IMG/VR virus record: IMGVR_UViG_3300025684_000012
DNA: 64,000 bases
Reading direction: 5' to 3' (one strand)
Source: a virus
Made by a program: the position numbers and the translations under genes. Positions within the stretch are counted from its first letter, which is position 1. Each line of letters starts with the position of its first letter. A model generated the notes under the pieces. The model was not told where the DNA came from and did no database searches. It saw nothing but the letters and a program-made list of their open reading frames with translations. Of the stretch, positions 19,247 through 29,735 are shown piece after piece.

Positions 19247-19254
19247 TATTTATA
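19247..19254 (-). promoter_or_regulatory. late promoter TATAAATA
   Basis: Exact consensus upstream of gp25. Confidence 0.75.
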
Positions 19255-20566
19255 CCGTTAAAGTGAAGGTGGTTGGTATACCAATCAGTTTTAATACGTC
19301 GCAAAAGTTGAGATCTAACAACGCAAGCAGCTTATCCAAACCTATAGCTTCCAAAAACTCCTTAACCTTCCTGATCCACTGAGCTATCAACTCTTTTTGC
19401 CATTGAGCGAACCATTCTTTAGCCTGTCTCATGAGATCTGCAATAAGCTCTTCTCCAGACTTGACATTCTCGTTAATAGGTCCACCTATAATGTCTATAA
19501 GTTTCTTGCCGAAGATCTCTACCTGCTCAAGCTCACTGATAATATACCCAGTTACGCTGAAGTTTTTCAGGTCTTCCTCCAGCTGCTTTAATTTGTCCGT
19601 TACTTTGTCTTCAATATCCTGGGCAGCATTTTCTACTTTGTTTTCAATATTCTGCACAGCATTTTCTACGTCCGCTGCAGCATTTTCTATGTCACCTACC
19701 ACTGCTTCAATTTGGTCTTCGATCTCCTTGAGCTTCTCAAGCGCTTTCTGCTCGAGTAATTCTATCTGCTCCTGAATGAAGGTTTCGAGGTCAAAGTCTA
19801 GCAACGCTGGTAGATCGGGTAAGCCTAATTCGTCCCATATTTCTTTAAACTCTTTAATCAGCTCTGCGAACGCTTTCCATAGAGCATTATTGAGCCAATC
19901 CATTATCTCACTCTTGATATACTGCCAAGTATACTTGGCTCTCCACTCATCGCATTTCGTTTGCCATCTTCCGTTAAACAAATCAGTAAAGGGCTCAGGT
20001 AGCTCTGGGATCTTTTCAAGAATCTGTGCTTTGATTCGGTCTTGTTCTTCCTGCGTAAATATTTTAAGTAAATCTATTTCAATACCAAGTATGTTGATAT
20101 TGAAGTCTATAGGAATAAGCTCACTAATTAACTCCAGTATTTTTACTGGGATATAAATGTGGTACTCTTGTATCAACTCATCCCAACAGTCTTTAGCTTC
20201 TTTCTGCCAATTGCGGATCTTACCTTTTTCCCAATAGGGAGATAACACGTCGGCAAACATATCCATCAACTCTTCGATATCTTTTATCAGAGCGTTTATT
20301 TGTTCGACGACTTCTGCTTGAAGCTCAGCTGCCCGCTCTATCAGTTGCTGTTTAAGTTTTGCAGGTATCTGTGCTATCTGGTTGAACGCATTGGTTAGAT
20401 CAGCTTTAGTTGGTAAACTATCACAGGGCACTTGGATTTCAATCGTAAGCGCCGCAGTATCGAATCCCAGCTCGCCAAGCGTAGCTAAACCTTCAGGTGT
20501 AGTGAACTTAAACTCCGTTTGGGGGGGTTCGGGTACGATCTTCTCCACCAGATTATCACTATCCAC
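19250..20566 (-). CDS. hypothetical acidic helical protein
   Basis: 438-aa ORF between gp5 and gp25. Confidence 0.6.
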   Translation of the reverse strand: MDSDNLVEKIVPEPPQTEFKFTTPEGLATLGELGFDTAALTIEIQVPCDSLPTKADLTNAFNQIAQIPAKLKQQLIERAAELQAEVVEQINALIKDIEELMDMFADVLSPYWEKGKIRNWQKEAKDCWDELIQEYHIYIPVKILELISELIPIDFNINILGIEIDLLKIFTQEEQDRIKAQILEKIPELPEPFTDLFNGRWQTKCDEWRAKYTWQYIKSEIMDWLNNALWKAFAELIKEFKEIWDELGLPDLPALLDFDLETFIQEQIELLEQKALEKLKEIEDQIEAVVGDIENAAADVENAVQNIENKVENAAQDIEDKVTDKLKQLEEDLKNFSVTGYIISELEQVEIFGKKLIDIIGGPINENVKSGEELIADLMRQAKEWFAQWQKELIAQWIRKVKEFLEAIGLDKLLALLDLNFCDVLKLIGIPTTFTLTV

Positions 20567-20573
20567 AATTCAC

Positions 20574-21194
20574 CTATGAGTTTAATTTTATATTTTCGCT
20601 AGCGTTGATATCAACATTCTTAGCGGTTAGTGTCACATCATTAACGCAACTGATAGATGCGTTACCTTGTACTATTATAGTAACATCTCCACTAACTAAT
20701 AGAATATCATCTTTTTTTACCACCGTCACGCGTGAGCCATCAGCTCGTAATTCGTAGTAGGTTCCACTTTTATGTTGCTCACGTATACGCTCTTTATCCT
20801 TAGTATCATCATATTCCTTATAATGTCCAGATTCAGTTTCGTATACTTTATTGAGTGGATAATTATCCAACGCCTTAGAATTAGTGTCTTCCTTTTTAGG
20901 AATACAACCGAGCACAAGAGGTAACTGTGAGTTTTGACCATCTAGGAATATTCCAAATACCTGTGTACCTTTTACTATACCTAGATTCTGTCCTACGCCT
21001 TTGTGTATACCAGCCGTCACAGGAACTGTTATTTGGGCCCACGGTAAGTGTTCATCGTCAATATTATCGTATACGCCGAGCGCTTTAACCTTAACGCGAC
21101 CAATTTTCAGCGGATCCTTTTCAACATCTACAACATGACCCACAAACCAACGTACAGAGTCACCATAAAAATCAACATAAGTCTTGGGTATCAT
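20574..21194 (-). CDS. 5: baseplate hub/central spike gp5 (OB fold plus short beta-helix, no lysozyme domain)
   Basis: WFVGHVVD..DPLKIGRVKV, LPWA, VFGIFLDG, YPLNKVYETESGH..EYDDT. Confidence 0.88.
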   Translation of the reverse strand: MIPKTYVDFYGDSVRWFVGHVVDVEKDPLKIGRVKVKALGVYDNIDDEHLPWAQITVPVTAGIHKGVGQNLGIVKGTQVFGIFLDGQNSQLPLVLGCIPKKEDTNSKALDNYPLNKVYETESGHYKEYDDTKDKERIREQHKSGTYYELRADGSRVTVVKKDDILLVSGDVTIIVQGNASISCVNDVTLTAKNVDINASENIKLNS

Positions 21195-22507
21195 ACATCA
21201 CCATTTGATATTTTAACGCACGTCAAAGCTATAGTATATGCATCTCTAGAAATAGAATGCTTAGCTGAGTATATTAAGTAGTTCCCTGATTTCTTTTTGT
21301 CAAAGCGGTCAGAGCTCTTACCTTCATCATTTAAATTGGCTGGAAACATAACTTCCAGCTTATTACCTATAGTACTGTTACCCTCTATCTGTAAAAAATC
21401 GATACCGTTAACAATAATACTAAGTGGTTGTTTTCTGATTAATCCAACCATTGCTTGTTGAGTAGAATTCAATTTATATTGACCTACAGTTTCACTCTGG
21501 TTATATGAATCAAATCCCTCGAATGCTTGAGTGCTCGCTATTTGAGATATATGCCGACTCTGAATCTCGCCATACGGCGTACCGTTATCCTCGAAGTATA
21601 AACTAAACAGCGGATTCTTTTTGATTAAATCATCCTCAACCAATGTATCGGTAACATCGATCATGTTGTGTTTATGGTTAACAACTTCGTTATTGGTTAC
21701 GTCAATGAATTGATGGGTAGCACCAATAAGACCGCGGTCTATCAAACTATACAGGTTGTCGGTGTCTTTAACTTGGTAATCCATGATTATCCGTCTACGA
21801 GAAGTGTCATCGAAATTCTCGTCAGGGGAAGGTATAGCGGATTCGGTAAAGGTATACGGAGCGCCCTCGTTGATTGCTGGCTTTTCCAGCATTGTTTTAA
21901 GATCTACTAGGAATAGCTCTTCACCACCCAAATACGAATACAAGTAGAACGGGTAACCCTTCTCAGTGCTTATCTTGTTCTTAATCCAAGACATAGCGTT
22001 AAGTGGAGTAAGATTAGGAACAATCAGCTTCATTTTCTGAGGAGGTTCTGTACTAGCCTTTATAGTAGTATCTAGGAACTCAGACGCTATCTTAGCCATA
22101 ATCGTTGTTGGCTTACCGCTGTATGCCTTGTTGACGTTTTGTAGGTTAGAGCGGTAATTAACGGTCTGAGTCAAGTGCAGTGCTACTAGCTCATTAGTCT
22201 CGTTACCTTTAGCTGCCGTGATCACCTTATCGATATAGAATTGAATTTCTACAGGAACCGCTACAACAGTATTAGCCTTCAATACGATGTCTACTGTTTC
22301 AGCTCCACTGATATTGAGAGCCGATACTATATTGTCACCATCAGTGAACGAAAGAACTGCTGAGACATACGGCTTATCAATATGCTCGAAAATGTCTATA
22401 TCCGAAACAACGTTCTTTATATCTACCTGAATTGGGTTAGATGGACTCTGCAGTACTACACTCTCTATCAATATAGCGGTAGCTTTCTCAATAGCAAAAT
22501 TACCCAT
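21191..22507 (-). CDS. baseplate hub protein, gp27-like
   Basis: Between gp53 and gp5; DIFEHIDKPY, IVPNLTP, SGNYLIYSAKH. Confidence 0.7.
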   Translation of the reverse strand: MGNFAIEKATAILIESVVLQSPSNPIQVDIKNVVSDIDIFEHIDKPYVSAVLSFTDGDNIVSALNISGAETVDIVLKANTVVAVPVEIQFYIDKVITAAKGNETNELVALHLTQTVNYRSNLQNVNKAYSGKPTTIMAKIASEFLDTTIKASTEPPQKMKLIVPNLTPLNAMSWIKNKISTEKGYPFYLYSYLGGEELFLVDLKTMLEKPAINEGAPYTFTESAIPSPDENFDDTSRRRIIMDYQVKDTDNLYSLIDRGLIGATHQFIDVTNNEVVNHKHNMIDVTDTLVEDDLIKKNPLFSLYFEDNGTPYGEIQSRHISQIASTQAFEGFDSYNQSETVGQYKLNSTQQAMVGLIRKQPLSIIVNGIDFLQIEGNSTIGNKLEVMFPANLNDEGKSSDRFDKKKSGNYLIYSAKHSISRDAYTIALTCVKISNGDV

Positions 22508-23262
22508 TATGAACTCACAGCTTGGTTAAACATGGATACCACTCTATTAACCACAGCGGGTTTCAAGACGTTTATCTCCTTGAGTTTATCGTTTTCTTGT
22601 ACGTAGTATTCTAGGTTGGTTACTCTAACCTGGTTTTGACCTTCTCCGGTAAACGGTAGATAGTCAATTAACTCTCCATCTATACTATGGTAGCGTGCAG
22701 CTAGATGTTCCGGCGTAAAGTATTCCGCAGTGATAGATTCGTTTGTTTCAACGGAGGTAATTAGGTCTCCGTCTACTATATCATTCGGAGAAAAGGCAAC
22801 AGGAACATATTGCCCGTCCTGCAGCTTTCTGAGATTAGTCACCGTGATATCCCCTAACTTGAGGTTACGGTAAATTATATCCGCGCGAAGACCTGATCTA
22901 TTGCAGTGGATAGTCTCTCCTACAAGTAGCTTATCGTGAATTACATCATGAGTGTGGATAGTGTAGTCGGGAAAGTCTTTCTTTGCCTTCTGGAGAACCT
23001 CCTGTTGATTCAATGGCCATCCCTTTTCCCGCAAATTATCGTTGATCATAAACAAAACCCAATATAGGTGTGGGTCTTTATATAACTTAAAAGCCACCTG
23101 GTCTGGGCGCTCGCCCGTTATGATGTGGTACTGCTGATAAAACGCTCCATTGTTCTTAATGTCATCCATAATCTGAGCATAAGCAGCAAGATTTTGAGCG
23201 CGAGCAACCTTACCATCGCCAAATGAGTATAGAGTCTTCGGAAAGAAGCTGAAGTATGGCAT
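22507..23262 (-). CDS. 53: baseplate wedge subunit gp53
   Basis: MPYFSFFP start; GERPDQVAFKLY..PHLYWV...N....WP. Confidence 0.88.
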   Translation of the reverse strand: MPYFSFFPKTLYSFGDGKVARAQNLAAYAQIMDDIKNNGAFYQQYHIITGERPDQVAFKLYKDPHLYWVLFMINDNLREKGWPLNQQEVLQKAKKDFPDYTIHTHDVIHDKLLVGETIHCNRSGLRADIIYRNLKLGDITVTNLRKLQDGQYVPVAFSPNDIVDGDLITSVETNESITAEYFTPEHLAARYHSIDGELIDYLPFTGEGQNQVRVTNLEYYVQENDKLKEINVLKPAVVNRVVSMFNQAVSS

Positions 23263-23263
23263 A

Positions 23264-24454
23264 TTAGTATCCTTGTGAAATAGAACGACGGTCCAGCGTT
23301 TTCTCTTCAATGAAGTTTAACGTTAGATCGATTTCTACCGGCTTACCATCTTTATGGAACGCCATCGAACCCGGGTTGTAGTTGGTAGCAATGTTTTTCA
23401 AGAAGCATTTGAGGAATTTGTGCCCCACCTGAACTTCCCCCGTTTTAGTTTTATACTTAATTTGGATATCAAACAGATCTGGGAACTTGTATCCTAGTGC
23501 AACAGAAGCGCCTACGGATTCGCCACCAACGTCCACAGAGCCACTAGCATCCAGAGTCTCGGGATATGCAGCAAAGCGAAATCTCCGTATGATATCTTCT
23601 ACCACCTTGGACTCTTCTTTAGACTTAGGGATGAACTTAAACTGGAAACTAAACTCTCGTAAATTTACGCCTTTGAACGAAGAACGTTGGTTTGGATTGA
23701 TAGTTACTCCGGCAGCAATAGAAGCCCCTTCTTGGACATTACCAGCTCCAGGGACCTTACTTAGCCCTCTTATCAATGCTAGTCTCGCCAAATCTCCAGT
23801 CTTAGCGCTACCAGAGAAAGTGTCTGACACCGATTTAAACCCTTGCGTTACAGCTGTGTCAAGTGCGCTCAATAGACCTCCACCTTGACTAACCATGGTT
23901 TCACCCATAGCTGCTCCTACCACTCCCAAGCTAGGGTTGTCATACTGCAAGTTATCGTTGAACGTTAACGCTACTGGGGTATACAGAGTAATGGGATCCC
24001 CCTTGCCTATCATGCGCCGTGACGTAATAGCCTGATCTTGGCTGGGATCTTGTCCACTGATGTTAGTGTCAACATTATCGTCATCTTTCCCAGTGAACAC
24101 GTCAACTAGAGCTTCAAAGGCGTCGCCTATAGCGTCGAAGAAACCACCAGAGCTTTCCTCAGCTGCGGATGATGCCGCTGAAACGGCTTCAGTCGACGAA
24201 CTTACCCCATCTTTTAACGCCTGCGCGGTAGCCTCACCAAATGTAGGTGCCTCAATTTCATATTGACTAAACTTAATAAACCCCTGATACCTATCAACGT
24301 TTTCGATAGGGTATCTCAGTGGACCACTTAGGATATCGTCGTCACTAAGAGATCCCGTCGCCGTTTTATCCAGAATTTCTTGTTCTTGTGCAGCTGTTTC
24401 ATCAGCAACTTCTGTTGGCGGCGTGCTTGTGTTAGTTTCAGCTTCTAATGCCAT
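23264..24454 (-). CDS. 48: baseplate tail tube cap gp48
   Basis: LRYP, NP....FKGVNLREFSFQFKFIPKS..ES, CFLKNIATNYNP, DLTLNFIE. Confidence 0.85.
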   Translation of the reverse strand: MALEAETNTSTPPTEVADETAAQEQEILDKTATGSLSDDDILSGPLRYPIENVDRYQGFIKFSQYEIEAPTFGEATAQALKDGVSSSTEAVSAASSAAEESSGGFFDAIGDAFEALVDVFTGKDDDNVDTNISGQDPSQDQAITSRRMIGKGDPITLYTPVALTFNDNLQYDNPSLGVVGAAMGETMVSQGGGLLSALDTAVTQGFKSVSDTFSGSAKTGDLARLALIRGLSKVPGAGNVQEGASIAAGVTINPNQRSSFKGVNLREFSFQFKFIPKSKEESKVVEDIIRRFRFAAYPETLDASGSVDVGGESVGASVALGYKFPDLFDIQIKYKTKTGEVQVGHKFLKCFLKNIATNYNPGSMAFHKDGKPVEIDLTLNFIEEKTLDRRSISQGY

Positions 24455-25062: not shown

Positions 25063-25653
25063 GTGTCTAATCTTTTTAACAAGCTGGAGATAGAAGCATT
25101 CCGTGCTGGTATTACGCCGCGAACACAAGAGTCGCGTAAGTGGTTCATGAATAAAATCAAGAACATGCGTAGTATCAATCGCGAGCAGCTGATGAAGACC
25201 GATCCACTACAGCCTAAGGGCAGTGAAGTGATCGGCTCGATGTATATGTTCTTTTATGATCCTAAGCACAAAGACACTTTGCCTTATTATGATGCGTTTC
25301 CACTAGTGGTGGTTATTGGTCCAGCTGAGGGTGGGTTCCTGGGACTGAATTTGCATTATCTTCCCCCAGCGCTGAGAGCTAAGCTACTTGACGGATTAAT
25401 GGATATTACAACAGATAAGAAGTTTACTAACTCAACAAGATTCAAAGCATCTTATAAGTTGCTAGCAGCATCAGCGAAGTTAAAGTATTTCAAGCCGTGT
25501 GTTAAACATTATTTAAACACTCATGTACGAGGTCAATTTGCGCTAGTTCCTGCTCCTGAGTGGGAGATTGCTACTTTTCTGCCAACAGCAGATTTCCGCA
25601 AAGCAAATAACTTTAAAGTATACAGCGACAGCAAGAGAATGATCAATGGCTAG
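25063..25653 (+). CDS. 2: DNA end protector gp2
   Basis: YDPKHKDTLPYYDAFPLV, GFLGLNLHYL, KHYL. Confidence 0.92.
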   Translation: MSNLFNKLEIEAFRAGITPRTQESRKWFMNKIKNMRSINREQLMKTDPLQPKGSEVIGSMYMFFYDPKHKDTLPYYDAFPLVVVIGPAEGGFLGLNLHYLPPALRAKLLDGLMDITTDKKFTNSTRFKASYKLLAASAKLKYFKPCVKHYLNTHVRGQFALVPAPEWEIATFLPTADFRKANNFKVYSDSKRMING

Positions 25654-26278
25654 TATAGAACAACTAAAAACGCAGGTCAGTAGAGCAAACGGCCTAGCGA
25701 TGACTAATCAGTTTGCTGTTGAGCTACCCAACATCGGTAGATTCACTGGGCGGACACTCAACCTAATGTGTAAGAGTGTAACGCTACCAGGTAAACAGAT
25801 TACTACCAAAGATCTAACGATTGGCCTGTTCAACGAGAAGGTCGTTGATGGGTTCTTGGTAGAAGACGTCACAATGACGTTCTACGTCTTGAATGATTAT
25901 AATACCAAGTTATACTTTGATGAGTGGCGTAAGTTGATGGTGGATGAAAAGCGTGGCGAGGTTGGATACAAGAAAGATTACGCTAAAAGAGTTACCATCC
26001 ACCAGTTACGTAAGCCCGACGGGTCGGGTATCCTCGGTCAAGAGTACAGTAAGGAAATAAGCATTGGTGGTATTTTTAACATTGGATTCGACTTCTTCGC
26101 CAATGCTATATACACGGTTCAGTTGAATCAAGCGTTTCCAACATCTTTATCTTCAATTCAACTATCGAACGAACCTGATGGATTGGTTGAAATGTCAGTG
26201 CAGTTCTCATATACAAACTGGACTGTCAAGAAAGATTTATTATCAACGTTGAACCGTGGTTTGAAATTCGACATTTAA
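25646..26278 (+). CDS. tail tube initiator gp54 / gp19-like
   Basis: CKSVTLPGK, YFDEW, AFPTSLSSIQLS, VQFSY..W. Confidence 0.75.
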   Translation: MASIEQLKTQVSRANGLAMTNQFAVELPNIGRFTGRTLNLMCKSVTLPGKQITTKDLTIGLFNEKVVDGFLVEDVTMTFYVLNDYNTKLYFDEWRKLMVDEKRGEVGYKKDYAKRVTIHQLRKPDGSGILGQEYSKEISIGGIFNIGFDFFANAIYTVQLNQAFPTSLSSIQLSNEPDGLVEMSVQFSYTNWTVKKDLLSTLNRGLKFDI

Positions 26279-26293
26279 CAATAGGGTTATACA

Positions 26294-27001
26294 ATGGCAT
26301 TACCGATATTAAACTCGACACCGAGTTATGAAGTGACTATCCCTTCAACTGGACAGGCGGTAACATACCGTCCGTTTTTAGTGAAGGAACAAAAGAACTT
26401 ATTAATTGCGCTCGAGACGCAGGATCGTAAAGACTTGCTTAGAGCAATCACGCGGACTATTAGAGCGTGCGTTGAAGTTGATCTAGACGCTCACCTAACT
26501 ACATTTGACGTGGATTACTTGTTTACTATGATACGTTCCAAGTCTGTGGGCGAGACAATTGAGATTCAGTTACCGTGCTCTGAATGCAACGCGGACAACG
26601 TAACAAAGGTAGATCTTGAGGGAATAACTATTGCTAACCCAGTAGTAGATCCTACTGTACAACTGAGTCCAAGTATTACTATTAAAATGCGTTACCCAAC
26701 ATATGAAGAATTTTTGGATAATGATGCGTTGTCACAAGCAAAAACTCAAGCGGAAATTATTTTTGAGTTGATCTTGATCTGTATGGATTCTGTGCTTACT
26801 GACGAAGAGCGGATTGATTTGAAGGTTGAACCGAGAGAGGATGTTGTAGCGTTCATCGAGTCGATGACTACATCTCAATACGAGAAGATAGCATCATTCA
26901 TTAACGGTATACCATTTGTATACAAAGATATTGAATATACTTGTAGTAGCTGTGGCCATGAGAATGTGAGAACTTTAAAGGGGATGGATGATTTTTTTTA
27001 A
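26294..27001 (+). CDS. 26: baseplate hub assembly protein gp26
   Basis: MALP, YRPFLVKEQK, IRSKSVGE, MRYP, two CxxC motifs, C-terminal GMDDFF. Confidence 0.9.
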   Translation: MALPILNSTPSYEVTIPSTGQAVTYRPFLVKEQKNLLIALETQDRKDLLRAITRTIRACVEVDLDAHLTTFDVDYLFTMIRSKSVGETIEIQLPCSECNADNVTKVDLEGITIANPVVDPTVQLSPSITIKMRYPTYEEFLDNDALSQAKTQAEIIFELILICMDSVLTDEERIDLKVEPREDVVAFIESMTTSQYEKIASFINGIPFVYKDIEYTCSSCGHENVRTLKGMDDFF

Positions 27002-27183
27002 TCAACCTCTCCCATGATAACTTGGCCAATTATTATCAAGTTAATTTCCAGCTTATGAATAATTACAATTATTCGCTCGAGGAAGTTGAAATGATGATGC
27101 CTTGGGAGAGGGAGATCTATCTCACAATGTTGATAGAAGATATAAAAGAGCGAACCGAAAGGTCTAAACGAAAGGGTCAATGA
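26998..27183 (+). CDS. 51: gp51 baseplate hub assembly catalyst; no ATG before the conserved region, probably reached by -1 frameshift from gp26
   Basis: Frame reads LINLSHDNLANYYQVNFQLMNNYNYSLEEVEMMMPWEREIYLTMLIEDIKE...; absent from the ORF track. Confidence 0.85.
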   Translation, partial: LINLSHDNLANYYQVNFQLMNNYNYSLEEVEMMMPWEREIYLTMLIEDIKERTERSKRKGQ

Positions 27184-27186
27184 TAA

Positions 27187-28737
27187 ATGACAATCGCAAC
27201 ACTAGTCGAGGAGATGAGGGAGTCTAATTATATTGCTGCTGAGAATAATCACATTATCGGCAATATACACGAACACCTTCAAAGTGAGTCCTTAAAGCAG
27301 GAGCAAAACAGACTCGACGACTTAGAAGCACGGCGCGACAGCACGGAGGGCTCCGCTTACGGAGGTAGTGCTGGCTCTGCGCCTGTAGCAGGTGCTAAGC
27401 CAGAAGGAAGTATGAAGAAAGCTCTGGCTGCTGGGGTTGCGGTTGGCGCCAAAGGCGTTGGAATGGGCGTTGGACTCGCTGCGCTCGGCTTTGGCATAGG
27501 TGGTTTCTTCACCGGTCTTGCAATGGGCGATAAGCTGCAGGCAATGATCGGTACCGACATGACAGCTACTAAACAAAATATGATCACCTTAGGGGAAGCG
27601 TTTGCTGAAACCCCAGATAAAGGTCTTTTGATCATGGCCGGTATTATGACTGGCGGTGGTGCTTTAGGTGCTCTGTTTGGTGTTAAAAGCGCGGCCAAAG
27701 CAGCAATCGGCATGACTGCAATGGGTGCTGGTCTAGGAGGTTTCTTCGCTGGTCTCGCTCTTGGCGATAAAGGTATGGGTCTCCTGAAGGTAGACGGGGA
27801 ACAAATCAAGAATATGATGATCGCGATGGGCACTGGCCTAAACGCGTTTGACGATAGCGCTCTGATAGCTCTGGGTGGCTTAGCTGCTATAGGTGCTGTA
27901 CTACCCCCCTCATCAGCTGTTAAGCTACCAGCATTCGGTATTGGCCTTGCTGGATTCTTCACCGCACTTGCTGGTATAGGGGACGCTGCAGCGTTGGTGG
28001 GTATCGACGGTGAGGGTATGACTACCATGATGGTCAACCTCGCCAAAGGATTAAACCCATTATCTGCTTTAGATGGTACCAATCTACTGAAAGTCGGTGG
28101 GTCGTTGATAGCTATCGGTGCTGGTATGGCGGCGGTGTTTGGAGTAGATTGGATCAAAGGTATCGGCGATTGGGTTGGGTCATTTTTTGGCAGAAGCGAC
28201 GATGATGATATCTTCAGTAAAACCGCACGTTCCCTGGCAAAGCTCAATGGAATTGATCTAGACTACAAAAACGTTGATGCTATGAATGTAGCTGGTGACG
28301 CGTTTAATAATCTAGCTACAGGAGTAATGAATTTAAACTCCGTTAACTTCGATGACTATGAAGATCAAATGCTTAGCTTTGCTAAGAGTACAGCAAAGAC
28401 CATATATCTAATGAATGCTATGTGGGAAGGGTCTAAGATAGGGTCGGGTTGGTTTGATGGGTTACCTGAGATGGACTTTGCTCCAGGGTTAAAGGTCGGC
28501 CATATAGAAGACGTTACATCTCAGCTTAAAGGTATTAGCCAGATTGCTGGAGTTCCTCAGAACACTGTTGGACAAACTATCACTAATCAAACAAGCCAAC
28601 TCAATAACATTTCTAGCATGGTGTCCCCCATAGTAATTAGCTCACCCAGCACAACAAACGTTAGTAACGGAACGATGGCAGTGTCTTGGGGTGGTGGCAT
28701 TTCAACTATGGACTCGTTCGATCAGGGTACTAGGTAA
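27187..28737 (+). CDS. tape measure-like protein (gp29 analogue)
   Basis: Ala/Gly-rich hydrophobic repeats (GIGGFFTGLA); directly after gp26/gp51. Confidence 0.65.
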   Translation: MTIATLVEEMRESNYIAAENNHIIGNIHEHLQSESLKQEQNRLDDLEARRDSTEGSAYGGSAGSAPVAGAKPEGSMKKALAAGVAVGAKGVGMGVGLAALGFGIGGFFTGLAMGDKLQAMIGTDMTATKQNMITLGEAFAETPDKGLLIMAGIMTGGGALGALFGVKSAAKAAIGMTAMGAGLGGFFAGLALGDKGMGLLKVDGEQIKNMMIAMGTGLNAFDDSALIALGGLAAIGAVLPPSSAVKLPAFGIGLAGFFTALAGIGDAAALVGIDGEGMTTMMVNLAKGLNPLSALDGTNLLKVGGSLIAIGAGMAAVFGVDWIKGIGDWVGSFFGRSDDDDIFSKTARSLAKLNGIDLDYKNVDAMNVAGDAFNNLATGVMNLNSVNFDDYEDQMLSFAKSTAKTIYLMNAMWEGSKIGSGWFDGLPEMDFAPGLKVGHIEDVTSQLKGISQIAGVPQNTVGQTITNQTSQLNNISSMVSPIVISSPSTTNVSNGTMAVSWGGGISTMDSFDQGTR

Positions 28738-28760
28738 AAAAAAGCCACCCGAAGGTGGCT
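28736..28760 (-). terminator. rho-independent terminator with C(UUCG)G tetraloop
   Basis: AGCCACC-TTCG-GGTGGCT followed by a T-tract, downstream of gp32. Confidence 0.9.
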
Positions 28761-28787
28761 AAGGACATCTGTGGTGGACAGATCTGT

Positions 28788-29735
28788 TTAGTCTTGCTGG
28801 GCCATCTGAGCAAAGTATGACAGGGTGTCATCTTCATCAGCGACTGCCGCTACTGAAGCGGGTTCAGCAGATACGATGGTTGGTTCACTAGCTTCTTTAA
28901 TACTAGCTGTTCCGGCCGATTGAGCAAGTGCTTCATTTCTCAACGTAGCTCCAGTACCAGTAGCCATACCTAGAACAGTTTCTAGTCGCGACTTCAGCTC
29001 ATCATAGCTCTTAAACCATTTAGGATCATGTGCTCCTGGGAAATCTGGGGTAACGAATTCGTTTAGATCGTACATCGAATTGTAGGTAGATTCCAACCGC
29101 GCATCGTCACCATCGAACAATGCAGCTGGCGCTTTGAACCCTGACTTATCGTAATTGCGATAACCTTCAACCTTACGGATCTTCAATTCAAAGTCAGCGC
29201 CTTTCCAGAAGTCGAAAGGATTGACAGGAGTCTCTCCAGGGAATTCAGGCTGCATCATATCCATGATTTTATCAAAGATCTTCTTACCAAACTCATACAA
29301 CATAACTTTGCCGTTATTTGATGGGTTAGCTGGATCATTGACAACCAGAACGTTAGCGATATAGTGTAGTCTACGCTTCTGTCGACGTACCGTCTCTTTA
29401 TCTTCTTCGTTACCACTGTTCCACAACCGCGAGTTCATTTCGCCCAATGGGTCAGCTTGACCGATGGTGGTGAGTGAACGCTCAATGTACCATTGACCGG
29501 TTGGACCTTTGAAAGCGTGATCCCAGTAACGTACCCATGGTAGGTCTTGACCTTCACCTGCAGGCAAGAAACGTAACACAGCATAACCATTACCACTATC
29601 ATCGACAGTAGGCTTCCACTTTCGGTCATCTTGGTATTTGTTAGTATTTGTTTGAACGGCGCCTGACGCTTCCTGAGCAGCTGACACTAAAGAGTTGATG
29701 TCCATAGACTTGGACTTCAGATTTGCAAAAGACAT
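28788..29735 (-). CDS. 32: single-stranded DNA-binding protein gp32
   Basis: DDRKWKPTVD..GNGYAVLRFLP, FGKKIFDKI, NPFDFWKGADF, acidic tail. Confidence 0.95.
   Translation of the reverse strand: MSFANLKSKSMDINSLVSAAQEASGAVQTNTNKYQDDRKWKPTVDDSGNGYAVLRFLPAGEGQDLPWVRYWDHAFKGPTGQWYIERSLTTIGQADPLGEMNSRLWNSGNEEDKETVRRQKRRLHYIANVLVVNDPANPSNNGKVMLYEFGKKIFDKIMDMMQPEFPGETPVNPFDFWKGADFELKIRKVEGYRNYDKSGFKAPAALFDGDDARLESTYNSMYDLNEFVTPDFPGAHDPKWFKSYDELKSRLETVLGMATGTGATLRNEALAQSAGTASIKEASEPTIVSAEPASVAAVADEDDTLSYFAQMAQQD

Follow-up and report, generated by a model that had tools for sequence, protein, structure and literature searches.

A conserved -1 frameshift in the tail assembly chaperone (TAC) genes of long-tailed phages has been described (Levin 1993; Xu 2004, 2013, 2014; reviewed in PMC5009743), and the 2016 recoding review presented the G-T frameshift as conserved in these phages 'except T4' (PMC5009743). 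As for T4-like phages, Vladimirov, Gautam & Davidson (Virology 2022) are cited for the recognition of gp26 and gp51 as their tail chaperones (PMC10274946, PMC12846349). According to the passage of the PRFect paper that refers to that work, some T4-like phages encode a short form and a fused long form in separate genes and do not use frameshifting (PMC10274946), and the 2025 paper on phage Adele refers to it for poly-T -1 frameshift signals in 'TAC-N genes of T4-like phages' (PMC12846349). Going by these citing passages, both the chaperone identity of gp26/gp51 and a poly-T frameshift in T4-like phages seem to have been published already. In the literature on gp26, gp51, frameshifting and cyanophages, we found no other description beyond Vladimirov 2022 and the papers citing that work.

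The DNA analysed here, a stretch of 64,000 nucleotides (IMG/VR record IMGVR_UViG_3300025684_000012; hereafter the window), comes from an uncultured T4-like phage of marine origin. Our analysis indicates that its gp26-like gene very probably yields two products, a short and a long form of a tail or hub assembly chaperone, by means of a -1 ribosomal slip; we infer the slipping, its efficiency, the client and the roles of the products from the sequence. The genes of the region come in the order gp48 (minus strand), gp4, gp2, the tail-tube-fold gene, gp26, the gp51-like ORF, a 516-aa ORF and gp32 (minus strand), and gp53, a gp27-position protein, a short gp5 OB-domain protein, gp25, gp6 and large baseplate or fibre proteins are encoded farther on the minus strand. 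The order gp48-gp4-gp2-tube-gp26-small ORF-large ORF is common to Phage C48C1, Sinorhizobium phage phiM7 and a KVP40-like vibriophage. Its core, namely gp26 followed by a start-less or small gp51-like ORF and a large ORF, is also present in Pelagibacter phage Mosig, Aeromonas phage ZPAH1 and Stenotrophomonas phage Marzo. In relatives, the genes at the tube position carry the annotation tail tube or baseplate-tail tube initiator. Phage C48C1 is the nearest cultured relative, with a gp26 identity of only 55%, and a nucleotide search of the phage collection with positions 25600-28800 gave zero matches.

Two features of the neighbouring genes deserve mention in their own right. The gp5-like protein (20574-21194, minus strand) is only 206 aa long; it comprises an OB domain and matches the N- and C-terminal parts of gp5 PHROGs, and it has no lysozyme domain. 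As called by the ORF finder, the gp48-like ORF (23264-24454, minus strand) shares 47 nt, 23264-23310, with the gp53-like ORF (22507-23310, minus strand), for which a TTG start was assigned; the true start of gp53 is probably farther downstream than this TTG.

Table. Features at the gp26/gp51-like junction of the window and in its immediate surroundings
Feature	Coordinates	Strand	Remarks
Tail-tube-fold gene (gp54/gp19-like), directly 5' of gp26	25646-26278	+	phrog_45 'tail tube', E 2e-34
gp26-like gene	26294-27001	+	235-aa short form (TAC-N equivalent); stop TAA 26999-27001
Shine-Dalgarno-like AAAGGGG, possible upstream stimulator	26977-26983	+	Purine-rich; ends 8 nt 5' of heptamer
Slippery heptamer T TTT TTT	26992-26998	+	X XXY YYZ in gp26 frame, within T8 run 26992-26999
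-1 frame extension	26998-27183	+	61 codons, from TTA (Leu) to stop TGA 27181-27183; homologous to T4 gp51 C-terminus
Predicted stimulatory stem, 5' arm CCUCUCCCA	27006-27014	+	Starts 7 nt 3' of heptamer; MFE fold, RNAalifold, pair counts
Predicted stimulatory stem, 3' arm UGGGAGAGG	27103-27111	+	Within codons of invariant P-W-E-R motif
Probable tape measure protein (gp29 analogue), presumed client	27187-28737	+	Gly/Ala-rich hydrophobic ORF, 516 aa

The preliminary description had placed a frameshift at the very end of gp26, and re-reading of the sequence gives exactly the end that it claimed, with a run of eight T whose last base is the first of the stop: positions 26981-27001 read GGG ATG GAT GAT TTT TTT TAA. 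The -1 frame is closed by a TGA at 26989-26991, opens at the T run and continues as FFLINLSHDNLANYYQVNFQLMNNYNYSLEEVEMMMPWEREIYL... to its stop, as both the sequence and the ORFs confirm. A -1 slip on T TTT TTT would thus turn the short form into a long form of 235 + 61 = 296 aa with the junction ...GMDDFF-LINLSHD..., and the junction peptide proposed earlier, GMDDFFLINLSHDNLANYYQ, is the expected product of that slip. The gp26-like ORF matches the Pfam family PF12322 T4_baseplate (E 1e-56, 192.6 bits for a cut-off of 24.5) and phrog_150 'baseplate hub' (E 2e-58), its protein is similar to T4 gp26 (BLASTP E 1e-7), and it carries extra domains with CxxC pairs. As for the extension, it does bear the gp51 signature attributed to it, since it matches phrog_634 'baseplate hub assembly catalyst' (gp51) with an E-value of 2e-22 and residues 200-247 of T4 gp51 by BLASTP with an E-value of 3e-7. 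The claim that no ATG precedes its conserved segment also holds: TTG 27022, which has no Shine-Dalgarno sequence, is the sole start-like codon there, and the first ATG is at 27055.

Conservation of the T run and of the -1 phase, which the preliminary description had singled out for checking, was examined among 80 metagenomic relatives of the window gp26 (53-86% identity), 80 relatives of the gp26 of cyanophage S-PM2 and representatives of other clades. T TTT TTY is in phase with the gp26 frame in 117/117 distinct gp26 genes, and all of the 101 unique junctions, from 176 loci, combine the in-phase T TTT TTY with a gp51-like ORF in the -1 frame; this sharing of phase and heptamer is far beyond chance. 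Within the window's clade, GAT TTT TTT is found in 50/50 distinct gp26 genes, and in the rest of the gene TTT represents 46% of the Phe codons and GAT 59% of the Asp codons. At the Asp codon one step 5' of the heptamer's GAT, GAT and GAC interchange freely in this clade. The stop codon of the short form is TAA, TAG or TGA, each of which leaves a Leu codon in the -1 frame. In other clades, the residue before the two Phe is Ser, Asn, Asp or Ala, and the third base of its codon is T in 67/67 cases, T making up 40% of third positions elsewhere. Even where the amino acid differs, the heptamer keeps its wobble bases from family to family. Protein-level constraint is apparent from the first codons beyond the slip site: over the first eight of them, the -1 frame has entropies of 0.22, 0.18 and 0.86 bits at codon positions 1, 2 and 3, a pattern implying that the codons right after the slip are translated. 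Relatives are 74-100% identical over the extension and 53-86% over gp26 itself, and this greater conservation of the extension suggests a conserved partner.

Comparison with T4 gives the extension its meaning. PF12322 matches both T4 gp26 (E 9e-64) and residues 1-201 of T4 gp51 (E 4e-52), whose genes are divergently transcribed, and the window gp26 aligns collinearly with residues 16-177 of T4 gp51. T4 gp51, being a gp26-like domain followed by a tail, thus represents a naturally occurring 'long form', whose architecture recurs in the predicted frameshift product. T4 gp26 itself serves as a small negative control, as its end (...GAG TTC TTT GAG...) encodes the two Phe as G TTC TTT, without a heptamer. 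Full-length gp51 as a single ORF is found in 1375 phage records, mostly of enterobacterial, Acinetobacter and Aeromonas phages, and the layout with gp26 and a start-less extension in more than 550, including those of Synechococcus, Prochlorococcus, Vibrio, Sinorhizobium, Pelagibacter and Methylophilales phages. Among longer proteins, we found no in-frame fused homologue of the 63-aa extension; such a search is weak evidence, and T4-type gp51 was found otherwise. Altogether, a programmed -1 frameshift joining gp26 to the gp51-like ORF, as first proposed from the window alone, is strongly supported, because the conserved site and phase, the coding signature from the slip onwards in the -1 frame with no conserved start, and the T4 gp51 layout concur.

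Just downstream of the heptamer lies the 5' arm of a 9-bp G+C-rich stem, which closes a structured loop of about 88 nt. The MFE fold of 26999-27125 contains this stem (-40.5 kcal/mol, z -5.1) and 0/200 shuffled sequences were as stable; RNAalifold recovered the stem de novo from 39 sequences, and it is 98.2% paired over 37 distinct sequences. Its support from covariation is thin. One C-G pair is replaced by U-A in relative L008 through two synonymous changes (CUC to CUU with GAG to GAA), and a second case involves AAC/AGG versus AAU/AGA; six of the nine pairs are invariant, and six sequences have a C-A mismatch at the outermost position. In the arms, codon choice departs from that of the remainder of the gene, with the Leu codon CTC in 36/37 sequences (10% of Leu codons elsewhere), GAG in 36/37 (31% elsewhere), AGR in 37/37 (34%) and TCY in 37/37 (35%), although part of the conservation of the arms stems from that of the residues LSH and PWER. 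Long-range pairing like that of the window is also found in Mosig. We consider that the stem probably stimulates the slip.

In several cyanophage subclades, the long-range stem is replaced by local hairpins of 6-17 bp that begin 4-6 nt 3' of the heptamer. Examples that follow U UUU UUC are AGCCCUC...GAGGGCU (7 bp) and an A/U-rich stem of 12-17 bp, and such hairpins are present in the IMG/VR cyanophage contigs L138, L148, L151, L159, L160 and L166 as well as L100, L101, L107 and L108. It seems that the stimulator was replaced repeatedly across cyanophage subclades while the heptamer stayed fixed.

The purine-rich element upstream of the heptamer takes the form AAGGGG, AAAGGA or AGAGGA in relatives. 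GAG encodes the Glu that precedes the invariant Gly in 39/52 sequences of the cyanophage clade, compared with 30% GAG elsewhere in the gene. This is partly explained by the invariance of the Gly codon. A hairpin between the upstream AAAGGGG and the U run was also considered and rejected, as it consists of trivial A/G-U pairing and encloses the slip site, where the ribosome would melt it.

We found no description in the literature of an architecture combining U8 and a stop with a long-range stem. That the stimulator is of a new kind, with U8 abutting the stop and a long-range 9-bp stem whose 3' arm consists of the P-W-E-R codons, is conceivable but in our opinion unlikely; as the 3' arm is built from those codons, the protein motif and the RNA signal would then be locked together. 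The U8-stop variant and the long-range stem are modestly new here.

The same 296-aa protein could also arise without any ribosomal slip, should RNA polymerase stutter on the T8 run and add one extra U to some of the mRNAs. This rival makes a product of the same sequence, and the T8 run that it needs is invariant in the 50 genes of the window's clade; a run of eight T is at the lower edge of the lengths known to cause polymerase stuttering (reviewed in PMC5009743). Nevertheless, we deem it quite improbable. The other clades have only T6 followed by C, which is too short for efficient stuttering and constitutes a classical ribosomal site in X XXY YYZ phase. Furthermore, the run keeps its phase with respect to the reading frame, a constraint that polymerase slippage would not impose, and the conserved stem at 7 nt falls within the spacing of 5-9 nt typical of ribosomal frameshift stimulators.

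Less probable still is that gp26 and the gp51-like segment are two separate proteins, the latter being initiated at TTG 27022 or ATG 27055, or else translated by ribosomes that re-initiate beyond the gp26 stop. GenBank records do annotate a separate small 'baseplate hub assembly catalyst', and an ATG is found 12-15 nt 3' of the heptamer, or overlapping the stop, in S-PM2, KVP40-like phages, Marzo and phiM7, in which separate initiation would be possible. In the window's clade, however, no ATG precedes codon 22 and there is no Shine-Dalgarno sequence. Position 27022 corresponds to TTG, CTG or CTA in the relatives (CTG or CTA in 21/37) and so is not a conserved start, and constraint at the protein level acts on the ten codons that precede it. 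The conserved extension region has no start codon in Mosig and ZPAH1, and that of ZPAH1 has none at all. The invariance of the heptamer's wobble bases across families, despite amino acid changes, would be left unexplained by separate initiation, and in T4 the homologous segment is found solely at the C-terminal end of a gp26-like protein. Lastly, although some sequencing chemistries are prone to errors on homopolymers, a miscount that hides an in-frame fusion can be dismissed, since the same T8 run occurs in 80 independently assembled metagenomic contigs and in cultured Phage C48C1 and the T6C of other clades is not a long homopolymer, and so can the idea that the downstream ORF is a dead remnant, given that the extension is better conserved than gp26.

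The preferred reading, a ribosomal frameshift that makes a chaperone pair, also draws on predicted structures. The AF2 model of gp26 (pLDDT 86.5) was compared using VIA-align with 48,161 PDB representatives. The three best matches to its residues 1-95 are 3fgx_B (Z 7.9), the HK97 TAC 2ob9_B (Z 7.2; rmsd 3.9 A over 83 of 104 residues) and YqbN, 3klu_A (Z 6.9), Z values of 7-8 being rated as middling by the tool; the first match that we judged unrelated has a Z of 4.0. Foldseek against the PDB returned only 2ob9_B (probability 0.69, E 1.1) and thus zero matches at E <= 0.001. We therefore propose with moderate confidence that the N-domain of gp26 has an HK97-type tail assembly chaperone fold. 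The extension is modelled as three helices (pLDDT 79). As the N-domain best matches the HK97 chaperone fold, the initial proposal that gp26 and gp26-51 form a G/GT-type chaperone pair gains support.

The presumed client of this pair is the product of the next gene. An ORF does start at 27187 on the plus strand, as the preliminary description had it; its designation there as tape measure-like is to be read as a probable identity, drawn from synteny, size and composition. An ORF of 490-760 aa occupies the position 3' of the gp26/gp51-like pair in all clades. Within the window's clade, the ORF is 493-672 aa long and 14-66% identical where gp26 is 54-86% identical, and the window ORF contains three copies of a Gly-rich hydrophobic motif with the consensus G-x-G-x-F-F-x-G-L-A-x-G-D-K. 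Tape measure proteins typically show such fast evolution, Gly-rich hydrophobic repeats and variable length. The phiM7 counterpart has weak matches to tape-measure PHROGs (E 2e-5), and an Atlas feature search with the window ORF pointed to the T4_Tape_measure cluster (score 0.91), which we take as a lead. The window ORF has zero Pfam, PHROG or NCBIfam matches. Against T4 gp29, BLASTP gave an E-value of 0.04 over a low-complexity stretch, and hhalign with a 38-sequence profile gave a probability of 0.4%, which is no match. The Pfam T4_Tape_measure model, PF25671, which the window ORF does not match, found nothing in five related genomes, including a KVP40-type one, so that it is too narrow a model for deciding on tape-measure identity.

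Another ORF of the window, at 19250-20566 on the minus strand between the gp5-like OB protein and gp25, encodes an acidic, all-helical coiled-coil protein of 438 aa with weak matches to three 'tail length tape measure' PHROGs (E 4e-7 to 7e-6). We regard it as a further candidate for the tape measure, or for another hub component, and its PHROG matches may reflect coiled-coil composition only.

We propose the following mechanism for the locus. Most ribosomes would stop at the TAA of gp26 and release the 235-aa short form, and a minority would slip back one base on U UUU UUU, either with both Phe-tRNAs or with the P-site tRNA alone while the stop codon occupies the A site. The slipped ribosomes would read UUA and 60 more codons, making the 296-aa long form, whose three-helix tail would be the equivalent of the T4 gp51 C-terminus. 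The G+C-rich stem, which begins 7 nt 3' of the heptamer and closes the structured loop, would probably stimulate the slip, perhaps aided by the adjacent stop codon and by the Shine-Dalgarno-like AAGGGG on the 5' side. If the locus works like lambda G/GT and T4 gp26/gp51, the N-domain common to both forms would coat the tape measure protein, probably encoded by the next gene, and the tail present only in the long form would recruit a further hub or tube component. By the same analogy, neither form would end up in the virion.

Database records annotate the gp26/gp51-like locus wrongly. None of the seven public records that we inspected has a joined ribosomal-slippage CDS, and hundreds of records of T4-like phages (cyanophages, pelagiphages, vibriophages and rhizobiophages) show either a truncated 'baseplate hub assembly catalyst' of 34-57 aa or nothing. 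In both cases, the real product is probably a frameshift fusion of about 296 aa, and gene callers should join both ORFs. The extension is unannotated in ZPAH1 (MW272540; L087 3205-3369), and it is shortened to an internal ATG in Mosig (MT647606; L003 2501-2563) and in C48C1 (L001 3085). The gp51 homologue of Acinetobacter phage vB_AbaM_Berthold (MN709128.1 119798-120547) is labelled 'tape measure protein assembly chaperone', which means that at least one GenBank record already treats gp51 as a chaperone.

On our reading, the rule that long-tailed phages make their tail chaperone in two forms extends to the T4 superfamily. The two-gene solution and the one-gene frameshift solution would be interchangeable ways to set the short-to-long ratio, and their coexistence would offer a natural system for asking why that ratio matters. 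The conserved stem and the U8-stop variant would provide compact, testable recoding signals for marine hosts. If Vladimirov 2022 covers no frameshifting outside the close relatives of T4, the comparative data presented here would be the first to close the 'except T4' gap.

Three known systems help to situate the locus. Like lambda G/GT, the gene is located just 5' of a large, fast-evolving gene, probably that of the tape measure, and its N-domain appears to have the HK97-type chaperone fold. It differs from lambda G/GT in that its protein is larger (235 aa) and has extra domains with CxxC pairs, and in that its heptamer is U UUU UUU or U UUU UUC rather than G GGA AAG.

The dnaX cassette of Escherichia coli comprises an upstream Shine-Dalgarno-like element, a heptamer and a downstream stem-loop. 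The layout at the gp26/gp51-like junction is similar, with Shine-Dalgarno-like purines 8-9 nt 5' of a homopolymeric heptamer and a stable stem 6-7 nt 3' of it, the purines having a putative role here. In dnaX, however, the shifted frame ends almost at once and gives a shorter protein, whereas the shift in the window would extend the protein; furthermore, the window stem is long-range, closing a loop of some 88 nt.

As for T4 gp26 (208 aa) and gp51 (249 aa), PF12322 is present in both, and the short and long forms predicted here would correspond to gp26 and gp51, respectively. T4 gp51 and the putative long form both consist of a gp26-like domain and a homologous C-terminal tail of about 50 residues, and the T4 genes and the window gene alike belong to the hub and tube-initiation module. 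The difference resides in how the two forms are made: T4 has two divergent paralogous genes without a slippery site, whereas the window has a single gene from which both forms would be obtained by recoding.
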